A stretch of DNA of 64,000 nucleotides from Thermodesulfobacteriota bacterium (lineage in GTDB: Bacteria; Desulfobacterota; RBG-13-43-22). Made by a program: the position numbers and the translations under genes. Positions 3,025 through 62,664 of this stretch are shown here, one piece after another. The stretch lies in NCBI GenBank assembly GCA_049520575.1, contig JBEKPQ010000002.1, forward strand, positions 32,834 through 96,833. The letters run 5' to 3'. Each line of letters starts with the position of its first letter. Within the stretch, counting starts at the first letter, position 1. Under the pieces are notes generated by a model. It was not told the DNA's origin. It saw only the letters and a program-made list of their open reading frames with translations, and did no database searches.

Positions 3025-4344
3025 TTATAGTAACACACCTTTCAAAGAATGGATATAAGCCTTTTCAATCCGAACCGGGGCCGTTTTCCCCAACAGAACC
3101 GTGGGGCCGGAAAAATTGACAATTTTATTGGTCCGGGTTCTCCCCATCCACTCCTGGGAGGATCTTTTGCTGGTTCCTTCAACCAATACAGTTTGCACCG
3201 TCCCTTCCATGGTCTGGTTCTTTGAAAGGGTGACTTTTTTCTGATAGGTCTGAAGCTCCCGTAAACGGCGACTCTTTTCCTCCTCATTCACCTGATTTGA
3301 AAAATTGGAGGCCGTTGTGTTTGGACGATTCGAATATTTAAAGGAGAACATATCATCCAGTTGAACCGCCCGGATCAGATCCATAGTCTCATCAAAATCA
3401 GCTTCGGTCTCCCCGGGAAACCCTACAATGACATCGCTGGTTATGGCTATGTCCGGGCATTGCTGCCTGAGTTGAGCAATCTTTTCCAGGTAAGCTTCAC
3501 GGGTATAACGCCGATTCATCTTTTCCAGTGTGCGATTTGAGCCGGCCTGGACAGGGAGATGAATATGTTCGCATAAATTTGAAATCTGCCCAAAACAATC
3601 GATGAGTTCCGGGGAAAGGTCCTTGGGGTGAGAAGTCGTAAAACGAATCCGCTCCAGCCCGGTAACTTTTCCCAGAAGATGCAACAAAGAAGCAAAGGGC
3701 ATTTCCCCCGTCCGATTTTGCCCATAGGAATTGACGTTTTGGCCTAAAAGAAGGATCTCCTTGACTCCATTGGCCGCCAGGGTTTCCACCTCGGAAAGGA
3801 TTTCCCGACTCGGACGGCTTTCCTCGGGTCCGCGGACAAAGGGGACCACGCAATAAGCACAATAATTATTGCAGCCCTGCATAATGGTCACCGAGGCTTT
3901 AACCCCCTGGGAAAAGTCGGAGGCCATCAACAATGACTTGAGAAATAGATCCCCCTGGTCCATCTCAATTCGGGACAATCGGTTTTTACCCCGTCTGACC
4001 TTTTCAATCAGGCCGGGAAGCTGATGGATCATTCGAGTTCCAAAGACCAAATCCAGGTGAGGCACTTTTTCTAATAGGCGTTCTCCTTCCTGTTGGGCCA
4101 CACAGCCCCCCACTCCAATAACCAGATCGGGATTTTGGTTCTTCAACCGTTTAAGTCGTCCTAAAAGGCTATAGGTTTTTTCCTCTGCTTTTTGTCGGAC
4201 GCTACAGGTATTGACCAGAATCAAATCGGCCTCTTCCATCTTCTGGGTAACCTGGTAATCAGCAGAGAGCAAAAGCTGGGCGATTGTCTGGGAATCTCTT
4301 TCGTTCATCTGACAACCGAAGGTGGCAATATGAACCTGCTTCAT
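3025..4344 (-). CDS. miaB: tRNA-2-methylthio-N6-dimethylallyladenosine synthase
   Basis: TFGCQMNERDS, NTCSVR, GCVAQ, radical SAM CNNYCAYC and C-terminal TRAM domain. Confidence 0.95.
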   Translation of the reverse strand: MKQVHIATFGCQMNERDSQTIAQLLLSADYQVTQKMEEADLILVNTCSVRQKAEEKTYSLLGRLKRLKNQNPDLVIGVGGCVAQQEGERLLEKVPHLDLVFGTRMIHQLPGLIEKVRRGKNRLSRIEMDQGDLFLKSLLMASDFSQGVKASVTIMQGCNNYCAYCVVPFVRGPEESRPSREILSEVETLAANGVKEILLLGQNVNSYGQNRTGEMPFASLLHLLGKVTGLERIRFTTSHPKDLSPELIDCFGQISNLCEHIHLPVQAGSNRTLEKMNRRYTREAYLEKIAQLRQQCPDIAITSDVIVGFPGETEADFDETMDLIRAVQLDDMFSFKYSNRPNTTASNFSNQVNEEEKSRRLRELQTYQKKVTLSKNQTMEGTVQTVLVEGTSKRSSQEWMGRTRTNKIVNFSGPTVLLGKTAPVRIEKAYIHSLKGVLL

Positions 4345-4423
4345 GAAGATCTTTTCTGCTCTAAAACTTTTTTCTTGTTAAGCCTTCATGCCCGCCTGAG
4401 GTGGGCGCTACGAAATATGAAGA

Positions 4424-4555
4424 AGGTTTCAAGGGGCCAAGGATTCAAGTGAAAGGCGTTGGAGTAAAACCACGCGGTTCCCCGGAGGGGAACCTTTTCT
4501 ATAGCTCGACAAAGTCGAGCGTCTGAACTCTGGAATCCTCGAATCCTGGAATCCT
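4424..4555. repeat. GGATTC/GAATCC heptamer hairpin carrying one double-hairpin unit
   Basis: 4470-4528 is identical over 59 bp to 58568-58626; flanked by aggattcaagtgaa and gaatcctcgaatcctggaatcc. Confidence 0.85.
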
Positions 4556-4678
4556 TTTTTCAAATTAATAGTAACGAATCTCTAATAAAATATCAAGGAA
4601 GAAACCATCCGACAAAATTTCCTTGACTTATTTAAGGAAAAGGATACAAGGGTATAAAATTCGTCGGCAAAGCATGAC

Positions 4679-5347
4679 ATGATCCCCCTCAAGGATGACA
4701 ACCCAACCCAAACCTTTCCTCTGATTACCATTGTCATCATCAGCATCAATATTTTGGTTTATATCTATCAACTCACCTTATCGACTGAGGGACTGGAGAC
4801 CTTCCTCTTTCGCTACGGAGCCATTCCCTCTCGGCTATTACACCCTTTCTTTCAAGAGAATGCTTCTCGTCAAACCTTTCCCTTTGGATTGACCATATTC
4901 AGCTCCATGTTTCTTCACGGAGGTTTAATCCATTTATTCGGGAATATGCTTTATCTGTGGATCTTTGGAGACAACGTGGAGGATTACCTGGGACATGTCA
5001 AGTTTATCATTTTTTACTTGATGGCCGGCTTTTTTGCCGCCTTCATCCATACCCTTTCCGATCTCAACTCCCCCATACCCATGATTGGGGCCAGTGGGGC
5101 CATCGCCGGGGTCCTAGGGGCTTACCTGATCCTTTTCCCCAGAACCAATGTATCAACCTTGTTTATTTTTATTATCTTTTTCAAGATCATCAAGGTCCCG
5201 GCTGTTCTGATCCTTGGGTTGTGGTTTCTGATTCAGTTGTTAAACGCCGGCGCCGGAGGAGGCTCGGTGGCCTGGTATGCTCATGTGGGGGGGTTTCTGA
5301 CCGGGGTCATTCTAATTCGGACCTTCAAAGCGATCCGATTAAAGTAA
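4679..5347 (+). CDS. Rhomboid family intramembrane serine protease
   Basis: SMFLHGG, HLFGNMLYLWIFGDNVED, GASGAIAG and AHVGGF motifs. Confidence 0.92.
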   Translation: MIPLKDDNPTQTFPLITIVIISINILVYIYQLTLSTEGLETFLFRYGAIPSRLLHPFFQENASRQTFPFGLTIFSSMFLHGGLIHLFGNMLYLWIFGDNVEDYLGHVKFIIFYLMAGFFAAFIHTLSDLNSPIPMIGASGAIAGVLGAYLILFPRTNVSTLFIFIIFFKIIKVPAVLILGLWFLIQLLNAGAGGGSVAWYAHVGGFLTGVILIRTFKAIRLK

Positions 5348-5426
5348 ATAAGAAAAGGATTCAAAGGGTCAAGAGCACTGCTTAGAAAGTCAAAAGACCT
5401 GAAGTTTTGGGAGAAAACCACGGGAA

Positions 5427-5903
5427 TTAATTCCGGTCCTTTTCCCTTTTCCTTTCGACTATGCCCTGAATCTCTATTTTCTTCAAATGATCCAAAAGAA
5501 TTTGATAAGTCCCGGCCTTGATCTTCCCATAGGCCGTAACTCCTTTTTCCAAAAAAAGATCCATTTGACTGTGATCGGTCAACTCCACTTTGGCGGCTAT
5601 TCCTTTGGACTCCGAAGAAAGGGTGATCATCCGGATCTGACCAAAAGGAACAGTTACCCGGCCGGCCCCCAACTTTCCGGCCAAATAGGTTTGGCCGTTG
5701 ATACTGAATTGGTTCAGAGCCAGGGTCAGACCTTCGCTGTCGGTAATGACAACCGCAACCTCTTTGTCGGGAACCGGTATCACCCCGGGTTTCCCCGGTT
5801 GGCCCATGTTACCCATACCCAATAAAAATAATGCTGCCACCATAATACTGACCAGGCCGAATCGAGACTTCATCATTCTTTGTCCTTTCTCTTTCATCCC
5901 CAT
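5427..5903 (-). CDS. Exported hypothetical protein
   Basis: Signal-like N-terminus (ALFLLGMG); overlaps the nadK stop, so probably operonic. Confidence 0.6.
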   Translation of the reverse strand: MGMKEKGQRMMKSRFGLVSIMVAALFLLGMGNMGQPGKPGVIPVPDKEVAVVITDSEGLTLALNQFSINGQTYLAGKLGAGRVTVPFGQIRMITLSSESKGIAAKVELTDHSQMDLFLEKGVTAYGKIKAGTYQILLDHLKKIEIQGIVERKREKDRN

Positions 5904-6727
5904 TTCAATTTTGTTCGAAGGACTTCAAAATAATTTTTAAAAGGGGTTTTAATCAACCGGACGGATTTAGTCGCTTTTTGAACTCGCACCAGATCTCCGG
6001 CTTTTAAAGGATATCCTACTTGCCCATCAAAAGTCAACCAGACCTCACTGGCCTTAGACACTAAACGAATATCAATGACCGCATCGTCCTGGAGTATCAA
6101 CGGGCGGTTGGTCAGAGTGAAGGGGCAAATGGGTGTAATGAGAATGGTCTTCAAGGACGGATGCAGGATCGGTCCACCGGCGGATAGATTATAAGCCGTT
6201 GATCCCGTTGGGGTGGCTACGATCAAGCCGTCCCCGCGATAGGAGGTCAGAAATTGGCCGCCTATATTGGTTTCTATATCGATGATTCGGGCCAAAGCCC
6301 CCTTATTGACAACCACGTCATTTAAAAAAGGAACGACAGGAAGGTCTTCCTTGGCCCTAATAATCCGTCCCGTCAATACCATCCGATTTTCAGTCTCATA
6401 ATCCCCCTTGAGGATCTTTTCAAAAAGAAGACGGAATTCATCCAGGCCGATTTCAGTTAGAAACCCCAAACCGCCTAAATTCACCCCCAGGACAGGGGCT
6501 CCCAGATGGCCGTAAAGACGGGCCGCTTTAAGCAAGGTCCCATCGCCGCCTAAAACCACCACCAAATCCAAAGGTTCATCGGGCGGCCGAACTTCCAAGG
6601 CTGGAGGCTCTCCTTTTTCGTCCCAAAGAACTAAAATCCCTTTTTCCTTTTCCAGCCAGGTCTTGATTTTCAGGGCTTCTTGATAGGCAAAGGAAATATT
6701 TTTAACTACCAGTCTAATCTGTTTCAC
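5894..6727 (-). CDS. nadK: NAD(+) kinase
   Basis: LGGDGTLL, GGLGFL, NDVVV, DGLIVATPTGSTAYNLSAGGP; GTG start. Confidence 0.95.
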   Translation of the reverse strand: MKQIRLVVKNISFAYQEALKIKTWLEKEKGILVLWDEKGEPPALEVRPPDEPLDLVVVLGGDGTLLKAARLYGHLGAPVLGVNLGGLGFLTEIGLDEFRLLFEKILKGDYETENRMVLTGRIIRAKEDLPVVPFLNDVVVNKGALARIIDIETNIGGQFLTSYRGDGLIVATPTGSTAYNLSAGGPILHPSLKTILITPICPFTLTNRPLILQDDAVIDIRLVSKASEVWLTFDGQVGYPLKAGDLVRVQKATKSVRLIKTPFKNYFEVLRTKLKWG

Positions 6728-14753: not shown

Positions 14754-14847
14754 TTTATCAAATATCTTTGGCTCGAAATTAATTCGTAAGTTGATTAGCA
14801 TATATATTTTTAAATAACATACAATCGGCAATTTGACAAACCGCAGC

Positions 14848-14876
14848 TTGACTAATCTGCTCGAATATCTTATAAA
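14848..14876 (+). promoter_or_regulatory. Sigma70-type promoter of selC
   Basis: TTGACT-17 nt-TATAAA ending 8 nt before the tRNA. Confidence 0.7.
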
Positions 14877-14884
14877 AAATTAAC

Positions 14885-14982
14885 GGAAGTGGAAAGCTCA
14901 CTGGTGGGGCTCCCGGACTTCAAATCCGGTGTGCCGTCTGAAGAGGGCGGCAGGTGGGTTCGATTCCCATGCACTTCCGCCA
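14885..14982 (+). tRNA. selC: tRNA-Sec (anticodon TCA)
   Basis: GGAAGTG/CACTTCC acceptor stem with encoded GCCA end, CCGGA-CTTCAAA-TCCGG anticodon arm, long variable arm, GTGGG-TTCGATT-CCCAT T arm. Confidence 0.95.
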
Positions 14983-15117
14983 AGTTTTCCTGATTAGATG
15001 GGGTTAGGGTTTTAATTTTTTTGTAACACCACACCATTATCATTATTAGAAATCGCCCTGGCCAACGGATAAAAAAAGCCTATTAAAAACCCCCACTGCC
15101 TAGATTTTTTCCAAGGC

Positions 15118-15146
15118 TTGACTAATCTGCCCGAATATCTTATAAA
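15118..15146 (+). promoter_or_regulatory. Near-exact duplicate of the selC promoter
   Basis: 15116-15149 matches 14846-14879 with one mismatch. Confidence 0.65.
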
Positions 15147-15425
15147 AAAATCATCTCCAAAAACGTTGGCGATAATAGAAAAAATCGAGAGTTCGAGGAT
15201 TAACCTAACCCTTTGAATCCCAGAATCCTTGGATCCTTGATTCCTTTCTCCCAACTCATTTGAAGAAGAACCTCATTATTAAGATTTGTCCACATTTTTT
15301 AGAAAAAGGCACAGTCGGGCGCAGTCGCTCAATTTAATTTTCATAGCTATTAGGGCTGTGGCTTCGTTTACCAATCTCATATCGTATCTCTTGCTTCTTC
15401 CACTAGGATTCCAACAGGAGGGAAA

Positions 15426-49450: not shown

Positions 49451-51295
49451 TTATTTTGGGATAGCGCGAACTTCTAAGGATCTCAGCCAATATTTCCCGG
49501 CAATCTTGCCCGGAGAGATCCTTATTTGTATTTGCCCATGTAAATCCTGGCCATCCAACAATGGTGCATAGGTTATATTTTTTCCAGGTTGTAATTCTTC
49601 AGAAAAACTATGTTCTTTATCATAATGTCGCATCTGTGGCGTACGATAAAATATCTGCATAATCGTCTTTTGAGGAGCATATAAGGCGACTCGGAGACCG
49701 TACATTTTGGTGGCGTCAATTTGTAACTTTGGAAGTTCGAAATATGGATCGTACCCCGTTGAAATCAAAGAGTAGCCATCTTTAGCAGGGGCAATTGTGA
49801 TTTGATGAAGCGGCCTCAATTCTTCCTTGTGCTGGTCGGGTAATTGATAAACCATATTCCACATTTGAAATTGTAATATGGGGACTGTCTTTAAACCTCG
49901 TTCCACCCGTTCTTGAATAACAATATCAGGAGAATACTGTTCGACATATCTTTCCAAAGTATCAAAATCTAGTTGCCATCCCGGATTTATATACAGTGCT
50001 TTTGAAAAATATTGAGAAATATAGGGTTGTAATAAGGTAAACATTGAATCTCGAAAGATTAATGCCGATGGTGCCGTAGAGTTGCAGGTCGTCATAAATG
50101 GAGTATCCCATTTATTTTCAGTTAATTCTTTTAGTTCTGTTCTATCACACCCTGTTAAAGGGTTTCGCAGCGTTGGAAAATTTTGCTCTTTTAAATGATC
50201 CTGAAGATTTAACATTTGTCCAATATCTCCGACCTTTCCCGTACTCCAGGAAAAATCTTTTGCATGGTACTGAATTGGACTGATACCCGGGTAGAGTTTG
50301 GTGATATACTGCATAATCTCATATTGGGCAATGGCAGCGCCAAAACTATTCCAGTGCGTGTCCGTTTTATAAAATAATTGCCCTTCTGATTTGGCCTGAA
50401 TGAGTTTCTGACGCAGGTCCAGAATCGGCACTTCGGAATTTTTCATATAGTCTAAAAATTGGTCAAGACGTGACTGCCTCCCAACGCGTGTCACGTGTGA
50501 TGGATAATATTCCCCATAAATTGAATGTTTCTCAGGGGGAATAACTACAAGATAGTGAATCCCCTTTCTCTTCAAATACTGAAAATTCGTTTCTAATATT
50601 GATTTCCATTGCCATAATTGAATAGGAGTTAATGGATCGTTTTTTCGATAATCTTCCATATTGCTCAAATCTTCTCCCCAAAAATACCAGCCATCCCTGC
50701 CTACCGTAATCTTGGAATTTGGGGGACTGCCAACCATAATCGACAGTAAATAATACCATTTGGCCAAATCATCGCGAAAGCCAAAGTGGTCGGCGAAAAA
50801 CTTTTCAAATTTTTCCGGGAAATTTATAAGGGTGCTTAGATTCCATTTCAACTCAGGAAATGGACAAAGTTTGCGTCTTTCAATCATTGATTCCGTTTGT
50901 TCATCTGTAAATACCAACGGTAAAAAGAGGAAAATGATAAATATGACGATCAGGAAGTGATCAAAAAAGGGTCGATTTCTGGATGTGGAGCTACCTGAAT
51001 TAATTTCAATGGCCTTTACCCCGTCGACTCTGAGGACCACCCATAATCTTTTGAGTAATCCGGTTAAAGTAGATCCATCTTTATAAGTTCCCAATGCCTT
51101 GAATATGAGACTAAGAAGGTATAAAAGAAAAGAAATTCGGATTGGATTAATTAATGATGTGAAAGAAACCTTGCTGCCAAATATCTCAGTCTTAATAGGA
51201 CCAAAAATGATGAACGAAAATACAGCAGCACCTATATACACTATACTTGATAATAGAAAGAGACGACAAAAAGTTAAAAAAATATTTTTTTTCAT
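49451..51295 (-). CDS. AlgJ/AlgX-family SGNH O-acetyltransferase with an extra N-terminal TM module and a C-terminal carbohydrate-binding-like domain
   Basis: FADHFGFR, VGRDGWYF, PEKHSIYGE, FYKTDTHWNSFGA, RDSM and ERVER; start taken at MKKNIF (51295). Confidence 0.82.
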   Translation of the reverse strand: MKKNIFLTFCRLFLLSSIVYIGAAVFSFIIFGPIKTEIFGSKVSFTSLINPIRISFLLYLLSLIFKALGTYKDGSTLTGLLKRLWVVLRVDGVKAIEINSGSSTSRNRPFFDHFLIVIFIIFLFLPLVFTDEQTESMIERRKLCPFPELKWNLSTLINFPEKFEKFFADHFGFRDDLAKWYYLLSIMVGSPPNSKITVGRDGWYFWGEDLSNMEDYRKNDPLTPIQLWQWKSILETNFQYLKRKGIHYLVVIPPEKHSIYGEYYPSHVTRVGRQSRLDQFLDYMKNSEVPILDLRQKLIQAKSEGQLFYKTDTHWNSFGAAIAQYEIMQYITKLYPGISPIQYHAKDFSWSTGKVGDIGQMLNLQDHLKEQNFPTLRNPLTGCDRTELKELTENKWDTPFMTTCNSTAPSALIFRDSMFTLLQPYISQYFSKALYINPGWQLDFDTLERYVEQYSPDIVIQERVERGLKTVPILQFQMWNMVYQLPDQHKEELRPLHQITIAPAKDGYSLISTGYDPYFELPKLQIDATKMYGLRVALYAPQKTIMQIFYRTPQMRHYDKEHSFSEELQPGKNITYAPLLDGQDLHGQIQIRISPGKIAGKYWLRSLEVRAIPK

Positions 51296-51305
51296 TTCTA
51301 AGTCT

Positions 51306-51443
51306 TTAAGGTAAATATGGAACAAGTTTGCGTCTTTCAATCATTGATTCCGCTCGATTGTCCATGAATACCAAAGGCAAAAAGAGACAAATTATAAATG
51401 TGACGATCAGGAAATTATCAAAAAGCCGGTGTTCTTTTTTCAT
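51306..51443 (-). pseudogene. 45-aa duplicated AlgJ N-terminus
   Basis: MKKEHRLFDNFLIVTFIICLFLPLVFMDNRAESMIERRKLVPYLP* matches NRPFFDHFLIVIFIIFLFLPLVFTDEQTESMIERRKLCPFP inside the next gene. Confidence 0.85.
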
Positions 51444-58532: not shown

Positions 58533-58645
58533 CCAAGGATTCAATGGGAAGGCCTGGAAGTTAAAACCCACGCGGTTCCCCGGAGGGGAACCTTTTCTAT
58601 AGCTCGACAAAGTCGAGCGTCTGAACCCTTGAATCCTTGAATCCT
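58533..58645. repeat. GGATTC/GAATCC heptamer hairpin carrying one double-hairpin unit
   Basis: 58568-58626 is identical to 4470-4528. Confidence 0.85.
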
Positions 58646-60557
58646 ATTTTTGTTTTAAGTCGTTGTTCCCCTGACCCACCGGCCCGCCATCTCCCGGCTT
58701 GACCGAATTGGTGAAGGGGATGGTCAGGTTATAAACGCCGGAAGCAAGGGCGGTGGTCAAAGGGTAAGGGCCTTTCTTAAACACCTGGAGCATCCCTTTA
58801 TTGGAAGGCAGGACGGAAGCCGTAAATCCCTCGATCCCGTTTTTCTTAGCTGCATTAATCAGCATCTGATACAGATATGAGGCGATCCCCTTTCCCTGAT
58901 ATTCTTCATCCACAATAAAGGCCACATCGGCAAACGAACTGCTCGGCTCACGGACATATCTGGCCTCGGCCACAAGCCGGCTGTCTCCTTTCGGACCCAC
59001 CAACCCCACGATAGACACGATATTTCGGTAGTCCACGTTGACATATGACTGCATTTTGGTGTGAGGCATGGTTCGGACAGGACTGAAATAACGGTAATAG
59101 ACGTCCTCTTCGGAAAAACGATAAAACAACCTTCGCATTTGATCTTCGTCCGAGGGTCTGATGGACCGAAAGCGAAACCTTAGATTATCCTTAAAGGTAT
59201 GGGAATGTTCCAAATCCCCCGGGTAGAAATGACCGGCCTCGGTGAGATAGATCTGGTCCGAATAGATCATGTTGACCTCTTTGGCCTGCCGGACCAGTTC
59301 GGCCCGATCGTCCGGATGGGCGATGTCGATCAGGGCCAGGGCCCTTTCGCGGATGCTTATGCCCTTAAGGTAGGCAATGCCGTATTCGGTGACGATCATA
59401 TCCAGGGCCTCGCGGATATTGACCTGATTCGGATACTCATCAATCGAGATCTTGATATTCGATTGATTCCGTAAATTACGGCTGGGCAGGGCACAGATGG
59501 CCCGGCCGTTCTTGGACAGCCCCACACCGGCCAGCAATTCCAGGGCTTCACCCATACCGTAAGCCACATTGCTCATCCCCACATGCATGGCAACTTCACC
59601 GGTCAAATCCACCTTGCGGATGGGGATAATCAGGGTAAAGAAATCATGTGAGCCGATGATCTTGGGATCTCCCACAACGTCTATCCCCTGAAACTCGATC
59701 ACCGGATTTCGATCCAACCATTGCATGAGTTCGGCCGTGCCCAGGGCATAGGAGACGACACTTTTCCCCCGGTAGTAGGTCTTGTTCCGGTTGGTGACCA
59801 CACCACATTTGATAAGGTCCATGAGGGGATCGGTGATAAAAGGGGAATGTACGTTCAAATTTTTTTTATGTCTCAGATGGGGACCAAGGGCCTCAAACAG
59901 GCTGCCGGTGAAAAAAGGGAGACAACATCCGTTATCCACCAGTATCGCAACATTAGCTGCCACTTTATCCATAACAGGGTCCGTAGGCCAGCGGTCAAAG
60001 GTGATGGGCGGCAACTCGGCTTGAACCAGACAGTCGAATTCTTCTACGTTGACCAAGGTATCCCCCAGGGTTCGAGGCACCTGGGGGTTGATCTCCCCAA
60101 CCACCAGATCGGCCCTTTTCATGGCCGCCCTGGCCGCATCCACGGATACACCCAGACTGGCCCAGCCCGATTCATCCGGAGGTGTTATTTGAACAAAAGC
60201 CACCTCAATCCTTAGGGAACCGGATTCGATCAGCCCGGGGATTCGCGAGAACCGGCAGGGGATCATGTCCACTCGGCCCGAACGGACGGCCTGATCAGCC
60301 ATCCAGCCTGAGTAAAAGGTTTTCAGCCGAAATTTGGTTTGTTGCCGATCCTCCAAAAGAATGGTATCTCCCAGGCTAATGAGCTGAAGGACCTCGAGAT
60401 CTCTCAGATTGGATAAGGTCGAAGAAAGGAGATGCTTGACCAGGGTCCGGGGTTCAGCCGGCCCGGTGCCCACGAAGATGCTCATGCCCGGTTCGATTTT
60501 TTCTAGAACCTTTTCGGGAGCGAGGACCTTTTGTTGCCAGGTGTCATTCATGAGCAA
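58644..60557 (-). CDS. Acetyl-CoA hydrolase/transferase fused to a C-terminal GNAT domain
   Basis: AEPRTLV, EINPQVPRT, VTEYGIAYL.G..IRERALALIDIAHPDDR and AFIVDEEYQGKGIA. Confidence 0.9.
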   Translation of the reverse strand: MLMNDTWQQKVLAPEKVLEKIEPGMSIFVGTGPAEPRTLVKHLLSSTLSNLRDLEVLQLISLGDTILLEDRQQTKFRLKTFYSGWMADQAVRSGRVDMIPCRFSRIPGLIESGSLRIEVAFVQITPPDESGWASLGVSVDAARAAMKRADLVVGEINPQVPRTLGDTLVNVEEFDCLVQAELPPITFDRWPTDPVMDKVAANVAILVDNGCCLPFFTGSLFEALGPHLRHKKNLNVHSPFITDPLMDLIKCGVVTNRNKTYYRGKSVVSYALGTAELMQWLDRNPVIEFQGIDVVGDPKIIGSHDFFTLIIPIRKVDLTGEVAMHVGMSNVAYGMGEALELLAGVGLSKNGRAICALPSRNLRNQSNIKISIDEYPNQVNIREALDMIVTEYGIAYLKGISIRERALALIDIAHPDDRAELVRQAKEVNMIYSDQIYLTEAGHFYPGDLEHSHTFKDNLRFRFRSIRPSDEDQMRRLFYRFSEEDVYYRYFSPVRTMPHTKMQSYVNVDYRNIVSIVGLVGPKGDSRLVAEARYVREPSSSFADVAFIVDEEYQGKGIASYLYQMLINAAKKNGIEGFTASVLPSNKGMLQVFKKGPYPLTTALASGVYNLTIPFTNSVKPGDGGPVGQGNNDLKQK

Positions 60558-62229: not shown

Positions 62230-62249
62230 GGTTCGTATTCCTATTTAAA

Positions 62250-62664
62250 AGGATTCAAGGATTCCAGGGGTCAAGGATTCAAGTGAAATGCTTGGAAATA
62301 AAAACCCGGGTTCCCCGATCCGGCTTCCAGCCGATCGTTCCGCTCGGCTTTGCCGAGCTCCCTAAGAGGTTTCCATTCGGAAACCGACCCGATCTTTTGG
62401 GGAGACTCCCGAAGGGAGTTGGACAGGAAGCCTCCCTTTTAGGTCGGCGCCGGCCTCCTTGGGAGGCCTCTTCAATCAGGTCGGCGAAGCCGACCGTACG
62501 GGAACCTTTTCTATAGCTCGACGCCAGCCTCCTTGGGAGGCCTCTTCTATAGGTCGGCAAAAGCCGACCGCAAAGTCGAGCGGCCCGGCTTCCGAATGGA
62601 AGCCTCCTTTTAGGTCGGCAAAGCCGACCGGCTGAACCCTCGAATCCTTGAATCCCTGAATCCT
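62250..62664. repeat. Nested array of about 7 double-hairpin units inside a GGATTC/GAATCC heptamer hairpin
   Basis: See findings; outer unit arms match the solo copies at 4470 and 58568. Confidence 0.85.

Follow-up and report, generated by a model that had tools for sequence, protein, structure and literature searches.

The closest described match for the larger of the two elements reported here is the S23p-bearing intervening sequence of 23S rRNA genes, known from Coxiella burnetii and Leptospira (PMC4990558). Such intervening sequences have a long stem, formed by terminal inverted repeats, with an S23p open reading frame (ORF) in its loop, in Coxiella with tandem GACAGAT heptamers beside the start codon, and they have been described as selfish, their mobility being unclear (PMC4990558). 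The element that we describe, referred to below as the host, resembles them in having an S23p ORF in a stem loop, short tandem repeats by the start codon, and an ORF that decays. In contrast to them, it is not located in helix 25 or 45 of 23S rRNA. The window (the whole 64,000-nt stretch of Thermodesulfobacteriota DNA that was analyzed) and the loci L094, L118, L108, L071, and L099 gave no match to rRNA, and the three loci of the window that are considered here (A, B, and C) are all intergenic between protein-coding genes. Because host elements lie outside rRNA, they lack that defining feature of the intervening-sequence family. Peculiar to the host are arms that consist wholly of 8-bp repeats, the fact that most copies are gene-less miniatures, and its role as the target of a second element, a unit of 50 nt.

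For the unit, several systems offer partial parallels. Like REP and REPIN sequences with their RAYT proteins (PMC3116915), it is short, extragenic, hairpin-forming, and gene-less, it inserts next to or into its own kind, and each genome has its own “master” sequence, the copies within a genome being highly identical; the conserved AG at the foot of its hairpin 2 also recalls the REP tetranucleotide. Unlike a REPIN, it is composed of two different hairpins in direct order rather than of two inverted REPs, and, unlike REP/RAYT systems, it has no cognate flanked RAYT that we could find, exists in a handful of copies, and is confined to one other element. With IS200/IS605 elements and their gene-less derivatives it shares a hairpin near each end, the absence of both terminal inverted repeats and target duplication, an orientation set by a short target, and a preference for DNA able to become single-stranded. 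However, those derivatives measure a few hundred nucleotides (vs. 50 nt), and the unit has no conserved tetra- or pentanucleotide 5′ of its left end; furthermore, no autonomous partner with the unit's ends was found in ~0.8 Mb. The small dispersed repeats (SDR) of the Nostocaceae, which Elhai et al. are said to have described in 2008, are reportedly very small, mutually nested, situated in hairpin contexts, and without a known transposase. They belong to a different phylum and have different sequences, and the parallel with the unit is tentative. Finally, nested MITEs and IS elements that target REPs are likewise cases in which one repeat family is the landing site for another, but such passengers have either inverted-repeat ends with target duplications or an encoded transposase, and the unit has neither. 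By the classical test for a MITE, the unit shows neither hallmark, and the host has inverted-repeat arms and a possible duplication of CTTTTTTC.

In our reading, the window probably contains two nested layers of non-coding selfish DNA, an insertable unit within a palindromic host. The host is a palindromic element of ~100–190 nt, the arms of which are inverted arrays of an 8-bp repeat, (GGATTCAA)n ... (TTGAATCC)n. In copies with the unit, its parts run from the left end (..CACGAARCATGAAAAAGG) through 3–4 octamers, a spacer (GTGAAAGGCNTGGAAWTTAAAACC), the unit, and CTGAAC-type octamers to the right end (CCCTATTTTCGAACTAAA). Locus A is situated between divergent genes (for a MiaB-like radical-SAM enzyme and a rhomboid protease), locus B between convergent genes (for a nitroreductase and an acetyl-CoA hydrolase/GNAT protein), and locus C between a VWA gene and an AAA gene (Table 1). 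All three fold as long hairpins in which the octamer arms pair, and these are far stabler than shuffled controls (z-scores of −3.7, −4.8, and −9.3 for A, B, and C, respectively). The covariance model of the unit (see below) matches locus C at 62339-62389 (minus strand), 62448-62498, 62522-62572, and 62583-62632.

Table 1. Host and unit features in the window (positions are those of the window)
Feature	Position	Strand	Basis
Locus A, whole element (host and unit)	4377..4566	+	L023 1-525 aligns to 3852-4376, and 532-2113 to 4567-6193 (blastn)
Locus A, host left-end hairpin CATG..GCCCGCC TGAG GTGGGCG..ACGAAATATG	4387..4419	+	Same left end (..CACGAARCATGAAAAAGG) in occupied and empty hosts of other genomes
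Locus A, host left arm, three GGATTCAA-type octamers	4420..4448	+	
Locus A, host spacer GTGAAAGGCGTTGGAGTAAAACCAC, remnant of start and last codons of S23p gene	4449..4473	+	Deletion series from L094/L118 ORF
Locus A, 50-nt unit (hairpin 1, 4476-4494; linker TTTTCTATA; hairpin 2, 4504-4520)	4474..4523	+	Covariance model, 53.8 bits; fold
Locus A, host right arm TGAACTC TGGAATCC TCGAATCC TGGAATCC	4524..4554	+	
Locus A, T-rich host right end, family consensus CCCTATTTTCGAACTAAA	4555..4568	+	16-copy alignment
Locus B, short left arm (58533-58544) and spacer (58545-58571)	58533..58571	+	Host ends in common with orthologous L018/L019 site
Locus B, 50-nt unit, same as that of locus A	58572..58621	+	Exact copy; covariance model
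Locus B, right arm (58622-58644) and right end (58645-58659)	58622..58659	+	Contains stop codon of convergent acetyl-CoA hydrolase/GNAT ORF
Locus C, same host and unit backbone with at least four further units inside	62247..62664	+	Covariance-model matches
Unit-free host remnant, left arm AAGGATTCAAAGGGTCAAG and S23p C-terminus-like remnant	5350..5420	+	Missing in L023/L024; no covariance-model match
Unit-free host hairpin, four octamers, almost loopless, short right arm	15184..15269	-	No covariance-model match

A sequence-only reading of this DNA had drawn attention to a 59-mer (CCACGCGGTTCCCCGGAGGGGAACCTTTTCTATAGCTCGACAAAGTCGAGCGTCTGAAC) present in two identical copies with diverged flanks. 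The 59-mer indeed occurs exactly at 4470-4528 and 58568-58626 and at no other site in the window, where no third copy was found even with up to three mismatches allowed (chance expectation 0). The divergence of the flanks was likewise borne out: between A and B the unit is 100% identical, the 25- to 27-nt spacer 65%, and the right arm 68%. Contigs from JGI, ENA, and Logan have the identical sequence at A (L001, L003) and at B (L007-L010), and every one of the same-strain contigs is identical and unit-occupied. Given the concordance of these independent assemblies, the duplication of the 59-mer is no assembly artifact. Other details had to be revised. The arm repeat, taken to be a heptamer, has a period of 8 (GGATTCAA / TTGAATCC), and the mobile part is not the full 59 nt but 50 nt (4474-4523 and 58572-58621), the other nine shared bases being host sequence (CCAC on the left and TGAAC on the right). 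Also, locus A extends beyond the interval 4424-4555 originally assigned to it, as 4377-4566 is missing from the ~90% identical relative L023. The notion of one insertion point common to A, B, and C, between AAAAC and CTGAAC, holds to the extent that locus C shares the backbone GGTTCCCC...GGGAACCTTTTCTATAGCTCGAC...AAAGTCGAGCGG...CTGAAC, but the target is better defined as the 5′ edge of a TGAAYCC octamer (see below).

The origin of the host is evident from its full-length relatives, which have an S23p gene between the octamer arms (PF05635/TIGR02436, a four-helix bundle; PF05635 is S23p, the “23S rRNA intervening-sequence protein”). The example from L094 (6765-7136, minus strand, 123 aa) matches PF05635 and TIGR02436 with E-values of 3e-35 each, and Avd models more weakly. 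The progenitor ORF ends in ..E N K P L N P stop (GAA AAC AAA CCC TTG AAC CCT TGA), and thus its last codons are also the first octamers of the right arm. Graded internal deletions can be arranged in the series L108 > L142 > L141 > L145 > L078 > L099/L071/L165, ending in a spacer of 23–25 nt. The copies in the window are miniature hosts in which the gene has been deleted to about 25 nt, and their ~25-nt spacer, to judge from this series of sequences, is the residue of the S23p gene. The unit-free hairpin on the minus strand at 15184-15269 has the flank motif TCTCCCAACT..GAAGAAGA, which is typical of S23p elements.

Several further features were noted in and around hosts. In S23p-bearing hosts (L094, L118, L108, L129, L145; also at 15245-15269 of the window), the short hairpin TTCTCCAACTnnnTTGGAGAAGA is repeatedly found immediately beyond the octamer arms and may represent a further conserved end of the full-length S23p element. 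The DNA immediately to the left of many hosts (L047, L048, L062, L067; 4367-4386 of the window) reads ..TCGAACTAAACCCT and resembles the host right end. At locus A, CTTTTTTC is present at both edges (4367-4374 and 4554-4561); this pair could be a long target duplication, reflect a right-end-like target, or result from head-to-tail insertion. In addition, the arms of some hosts (L101, L102, and L139 among them) include a small extra insert within the octamers, GGGCCTGCGACGAGCTTAGGA or its complement, which suggests a third kind of passenger.

The unit is composed of GCGG, hairpin 1 (GGTTCCCC GGA GGGGAACC), the linker TTTTCTATA, hairpin 2 (GCTCGAC AAA GTCGAGC), and GKC, giving the ends GCGG...GAGCGKC, and contains no gene. 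The two hairpins are unlike in sequence and stand in direct order on one strand. Comparison of the junctions with empty hosts revealed neither terminal inverted repeats nor a target-site duplication. Sister sub-families have the stems GGCCTCC, GGCTTCC, or GGCTCCC, and GTCGGC or CTCGGC; the differences between their stems are compensatory (8 pairs are altered on both sides), and sister units occupy the loops of other units as well as a second slot (CATGT^) at the host left end. A covariance model of the unit family was built from 18 seeds and has 14 base pairs; the seeds were picked for perfect pairing, so the figure of 100% pairing is partly built in. No match was found in Rfam by either gathering or E-value thresholds, and nothing was found in the literature for the repeat strings.

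To establish where units occur, 185,579 species genomes were scanned for CCTYTTCTATAGSTCGRC (the window's own genome is not among the matches). This yielded 42 loci, of which ~24 are real, the rest being chance matches in genes of unrelated taxa. The real copies come from at least nine Thermodesulfobacteriota/“Deltaproteobacteria” MAGs, all in the same host. The covariance model gave 36 matches in 307 kb around unit loci plus the window, every one of them within a host or a nested cluster, and, among the matches listed, it found units in 6 of 79 host-bearing metagenome loci (507 kb). Thus, across the ~0.8 Mb scanned with the model, no unit was found outside a host or another unit. Viral contigs gave no match to the unit; octamer arrays are present in them, which is uninformative.

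Hosts were sampled independently of their contents using a metagenome probe, GGATYCAAGTGAAAKGC, that spans the arm/spacer junction and is blind to the interior. At least 120 loci were retrieved, ~35–40 of which are chance matches. Among the matches listed, ~75–85 are genuine hosts, and the unit is present in four of them (L073, L093, L135, L139). L139 is from the same peat sample as a contig of the window organism, and its unit is of the GAGCGTC variant that is specific to the window. Short, empty hosts number at least 25, the spacer running directly into the right arm (GTGAAAGGCNTGGAANTTAAAACCC/TTGAACCCTCGAATCC, the slash marking the junction), and at least 20 others have an ORF that starts at the ATG within GTGAAATGC, or a recognizable remnant of it. 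This count takes the place of the genome-wide one that the sequence-only reading had proposed as a check. One contig, L058, has an occupied host and two empty ones, and the window itself includes two unit-free host remnants (Table 1). In all four of four runs, peat metagenome contigs were found that skip the unit (with CCCT or TCCT instead), at other loci. Logan unitigs (depth ~3- to 5-fold) also include empty hosts elsewhere, but they break within the repeat and so are blind to polymorphism at locus B. The number of unit copies per genome equivalent suggested by these data is a handful, about 3–5. Had host and unit been a single composite element, neither should occur without the other. This expectation is matched on one side, in that the unit was never found outside a host or another unit, but not on the other, given that hosts without the unit are common.

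The polarity of the change can be read from the sequence AAACCC/TTGAACCC, which is unbroken in the progenitor coding sequence, in all of the deletion derivatives, and in at least 25 unit-free hosts, and is split only in unit-bearing copies. As it is unbroken in the coding progenitor and its derivatives, the unit is the derived insertion. Together with the unit-free hosts, this polarity supports the two-tier interpretation originally put forward, with an older repeat-armed hairpin as landing site and a younger double-hairpin unit. The target is best seen in CAZSTT01, where L037 and L069 have the unit at the spacer/right-arm junction, and L030, L034, and L053 have it, reversed with respect to the spacer, where the left arm meets the spacer. 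Both arrangements place it directly 5′ of a TGAMCCC octamer, as read along the strand of the unit. In L162 and in one peat contig, the unit is between two octamers within an arm. Being found at either junction, and always 5′ of TGAAYCC, the unit tracks the arm repeat and not the spacer, and positions that follow the arm repeat are not predicted by a fixed composite. The orientation of the unit is fixed relative to the TGAAYCC octamer. The bases at the 5′ junction vary (CCCT, CCAC, CCCAT, CCGT, CAC), the constant neighbor being the 3′ octamer, and thus there is no sharp target motif beyond the octamer edge.

Orthologous sites in relatives, located through contigs that code for the flanking proteins, are consistent with insertion of the host itself. 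At site A, L023 (~90% identical DNA) has 6 nt in place of the element, and the more distant L025 and L026-L028 also lack it. At site B, L021 and L022 (75% protein identity) have an empty 12-nt spacer between two stop codons, and L018 and L019 (91% amino-acid identity) have an octamer-armed host with the same outer ends and a different hairpin in the slot; no other copy of the L018 slot hairpin was found in the sample. Since A and B have a host where the corresponding sites of relatives have none, the host, too, has been inserted, and the three states at site B imply that the content of the slot changed after the lineages split. Among the relatives compared, no clean filled/empty pair for the unit was found in the same host at the same orthologous site, and at site A host and unit are missing together.

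The identity of the units at A and B should be viewed against the uniformity of units in general. When unit and flanks were compared, as had been suggested at the outset, the unit proved to be far more uniform than the host: averaged over all pairs of 16 simple copies, identity amounts to 93% in the unit, 82% in the spacer, and about 69% in the arms, and the corresponding values within CAZVHO01 are 98.7%, 88%, and 68%. Overall, within-genome identity of units ranges from 98.7% to 100%. Between A and B, 8 of 25 spacer positions differ but none of the 50 unit positions, and this despite variation of unit loop and end positions between genomes. There are genome-specific variants, GAGCGTC with an AAA loop in the window organism and GAGCGGC with a GAA loop in CAZVHO01. 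Fifty unchanged bases would be expected with P ~1e-9 under flank-like divergence, but with P ~0.5 if units differ only as much as they do within other genomes. That A and B are identical is thus the normal state of the unit population, and, because units are near-identical and genome-specific, it points to recent copying within the genome, by transposition or by conversion, into two hosts that had already diverged. It should be noted that three CAZVHO01 loci have one common nested variant and that copying of entire composites probably accounts for many occupied hosts; in consequence, independent insertions of the unit are fewer than its copies.

How the unit reaches its target can be sketched as follows. 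We think it decidedly probable that the unit is a separate insertion module. The long host palindrome would be extruded as single-stranded hairpin DNA during replication or repair, and a trans-acting, structure-specific enzyme would then put the 50-nt module in, the unit being copied to the 5′ edge of a TGAAYCC octamer in fixed orientation and with no visible target duplication. By analogy with IS200/IS605 or RAYT systems, the leading candidate for the enzyme, named here tentatively, is an HUH/Y1-type nuclease. In sequence, the hairpin 1 stem (GGNTTCC/GGAANCC) is similar to the arm octamer (GGATTC/GAATCC), and it may be that a single protein recognizes the two. The fuller version of that idea, in which the unit is a hyperparasite and a single protein (an undescribed nuclease, or the S23p of full-length hosts) reads the arm repeat as well as hairpin 1, strikes us as rather improbable. 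Of low probability, yet a serious rival to insertion, is gene conversion or template switching between dispersed hosts, by way of arm homology or of microhomology in palindrome repair, with no dedicated transposition chemistry. Conversion would fit the presence of units only where host or unit sequence flanks both sides, the concerted within-genome pattern of units, and the fairly similar right arm beside the unit at A and B (95% over 82 nt in family D1). Contig L004, in which the 59-mer connects the left side of B with the right side of A, could also be cited in its favor if the link arose by recombination rather than as an assembly join; however, as a 1.3-kb metagenome contig, L004 is most simply a repeat-induced chimera. 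Conversion is harder to reconcile with the opposite-junction units of L030, L034, and L053, where the left neighbor is CTTTCAC rather than AAAACCC, with the unit within an arm in L162, and with the related units in hairpin loops of other units, where there is no two-sided homology.

Two other readings were weighed. Host and unit might be one composite, always together, with a core under selection and with empty hosts arising by secondary deletion. Every u1-type unit, in at least nine genomes, is in the same host context, host and unit are jointly missing at A in relatives, and the nested variant at three loci of one genome points to whole copying, all of which would suit a composite. Nevertheless, we consider it very unlikely. 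Uninterrupted AAACCC/TTGAACCC is progenitor coding sequence, which makes the unit-free state ancestral, and, among the matches listed for the probe that is blind to the interior, there are more than 10 unit-free hosts for each occupied one. Moreover, the unit is found at two junctions and within arms, and its lack of any difference between A and B, at loop and end positions that vary between genomes, is at odds with a spacer that differs at about a third of its length. Least probable of all, in our estimation, is a cellular function, be it as an intrinsic terminator or as a binding module for protein or RNA, with purifying selection accounting for the identity of A and B. It is true that hairpin 1 plus TTTTCT scores as terminator-like on the plus strand at A and B (and at A also on the minus strand) and that locus B is between convergent genes. 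But the linkers of sister sub-families (TCTTCGGAAG, TGCTGGGAG, TCATTGGGAG) are not rich in T, locus A is upstream of both of its divergent genes, relatives lack the unit at the same sites, and Rfam contains no match.

With insertion of a separate module as the preferred reading, the unit is a parasite on a parasite and one of the smallest sequences observed to insert in bacteria: it behaves as a discrete insertion of 50 nt with a specific orientation, has no gene, inverted-repeat ends, or target duplication, and is below the size of described MITEs. S23p elements have been a puzzle since the 1990s, and here they appear outside rRNA as dispersed, decaying palindromes that spawn miniatures. What is new is the identity of the host, the argument for polarity, the definition of the target, and the occupancy figures. 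The target edge being known, and empty, filled, and nested states being available in nature, the system lends itself to direct testing with oligonucleotides and candidate enzymes. If arm repeat and hairpin 1 are both read by one protein, an undescribed nuclease or S23p, this would amount to a new insertion chemistry for DNA of less than 100 nt, and if that protein is S23p, this would be the first function of the long-orphan family PF05635 outside diversity-generating retroelements. There is also a practical aspect, in that units and hosts break and mis-join metagenome assemblies (e.g., the L004 chimera, and contig breaks within the unit). L004 is JGI 3300038418 (1273 bp), and the start of L002 breaks within the unit; the join in the one and the break in the other are most likely repeat-induced assembly artifacts.

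Transposase genes in the vicinity were considered as well. The window has a Y1_Tnp gene (PF01797; 53903-54754, minus strand, 283 aa) bounded by 20-bp inverted repeats (GGGTCAGGTCTTTTATTTTG / CAAAATAAAAGACCTGACCC), and adjoining it is a truncated IS110-family transposase fragment (PF02371; 53309-53749, minus strand). The IS110 fragment is unconnected with the octamer repeats, and no support was found for reading these as miniature IS110 elements, given the S23p gene of their full-length form. The Y1 relatives in L063 and L108 have other inverted repeats. Because the terminal inverted repeats that bound the Y1 transposase genes of the window, L063, and L108 are their own and unrelated to the unit, these genes were rejected as its mobilizer, and no other mobilizing gene was found there.

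Other repeats were encountered in the window and in its relatives. A tRNA-Sec gene (14885-14978) is bracketed by a 34-bp direct repeat, GCTTGACTAATCTGC.CGAATATCTTATAAAAAA (14846-14879 and 15116-15149, 97% identical), which looks like a duplicated promoter; the unit-free octamer hairpin at 15184-15269 comes after this repeat pair. A second kind of repeat-armed hairpin, with GGAGTTCG-type arms, is present between the acetyl-CoA hydrolase and VWA genes in L020 (5708-5893) and L021 (5551-5745), where the window has a single nucleotide. In L018, an insertion of ~200 nt (~2640-2840) with several small GC hairpins is situated upstream of the nitroreductase gene; it is missing from the window and sits within a different inverted repeat (ACAGGTTGATGAAAAAGG / CCTTTTTGAGCAACCTGT). 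Lastly, the window has a 108-nt direct repeat (50860-50967 and 51317-51424, 83% identical) with a distance of 457 nt between its copies, which overlap the end of an AlgX-like ORF as well as the region that precedes an MBOAT gene.
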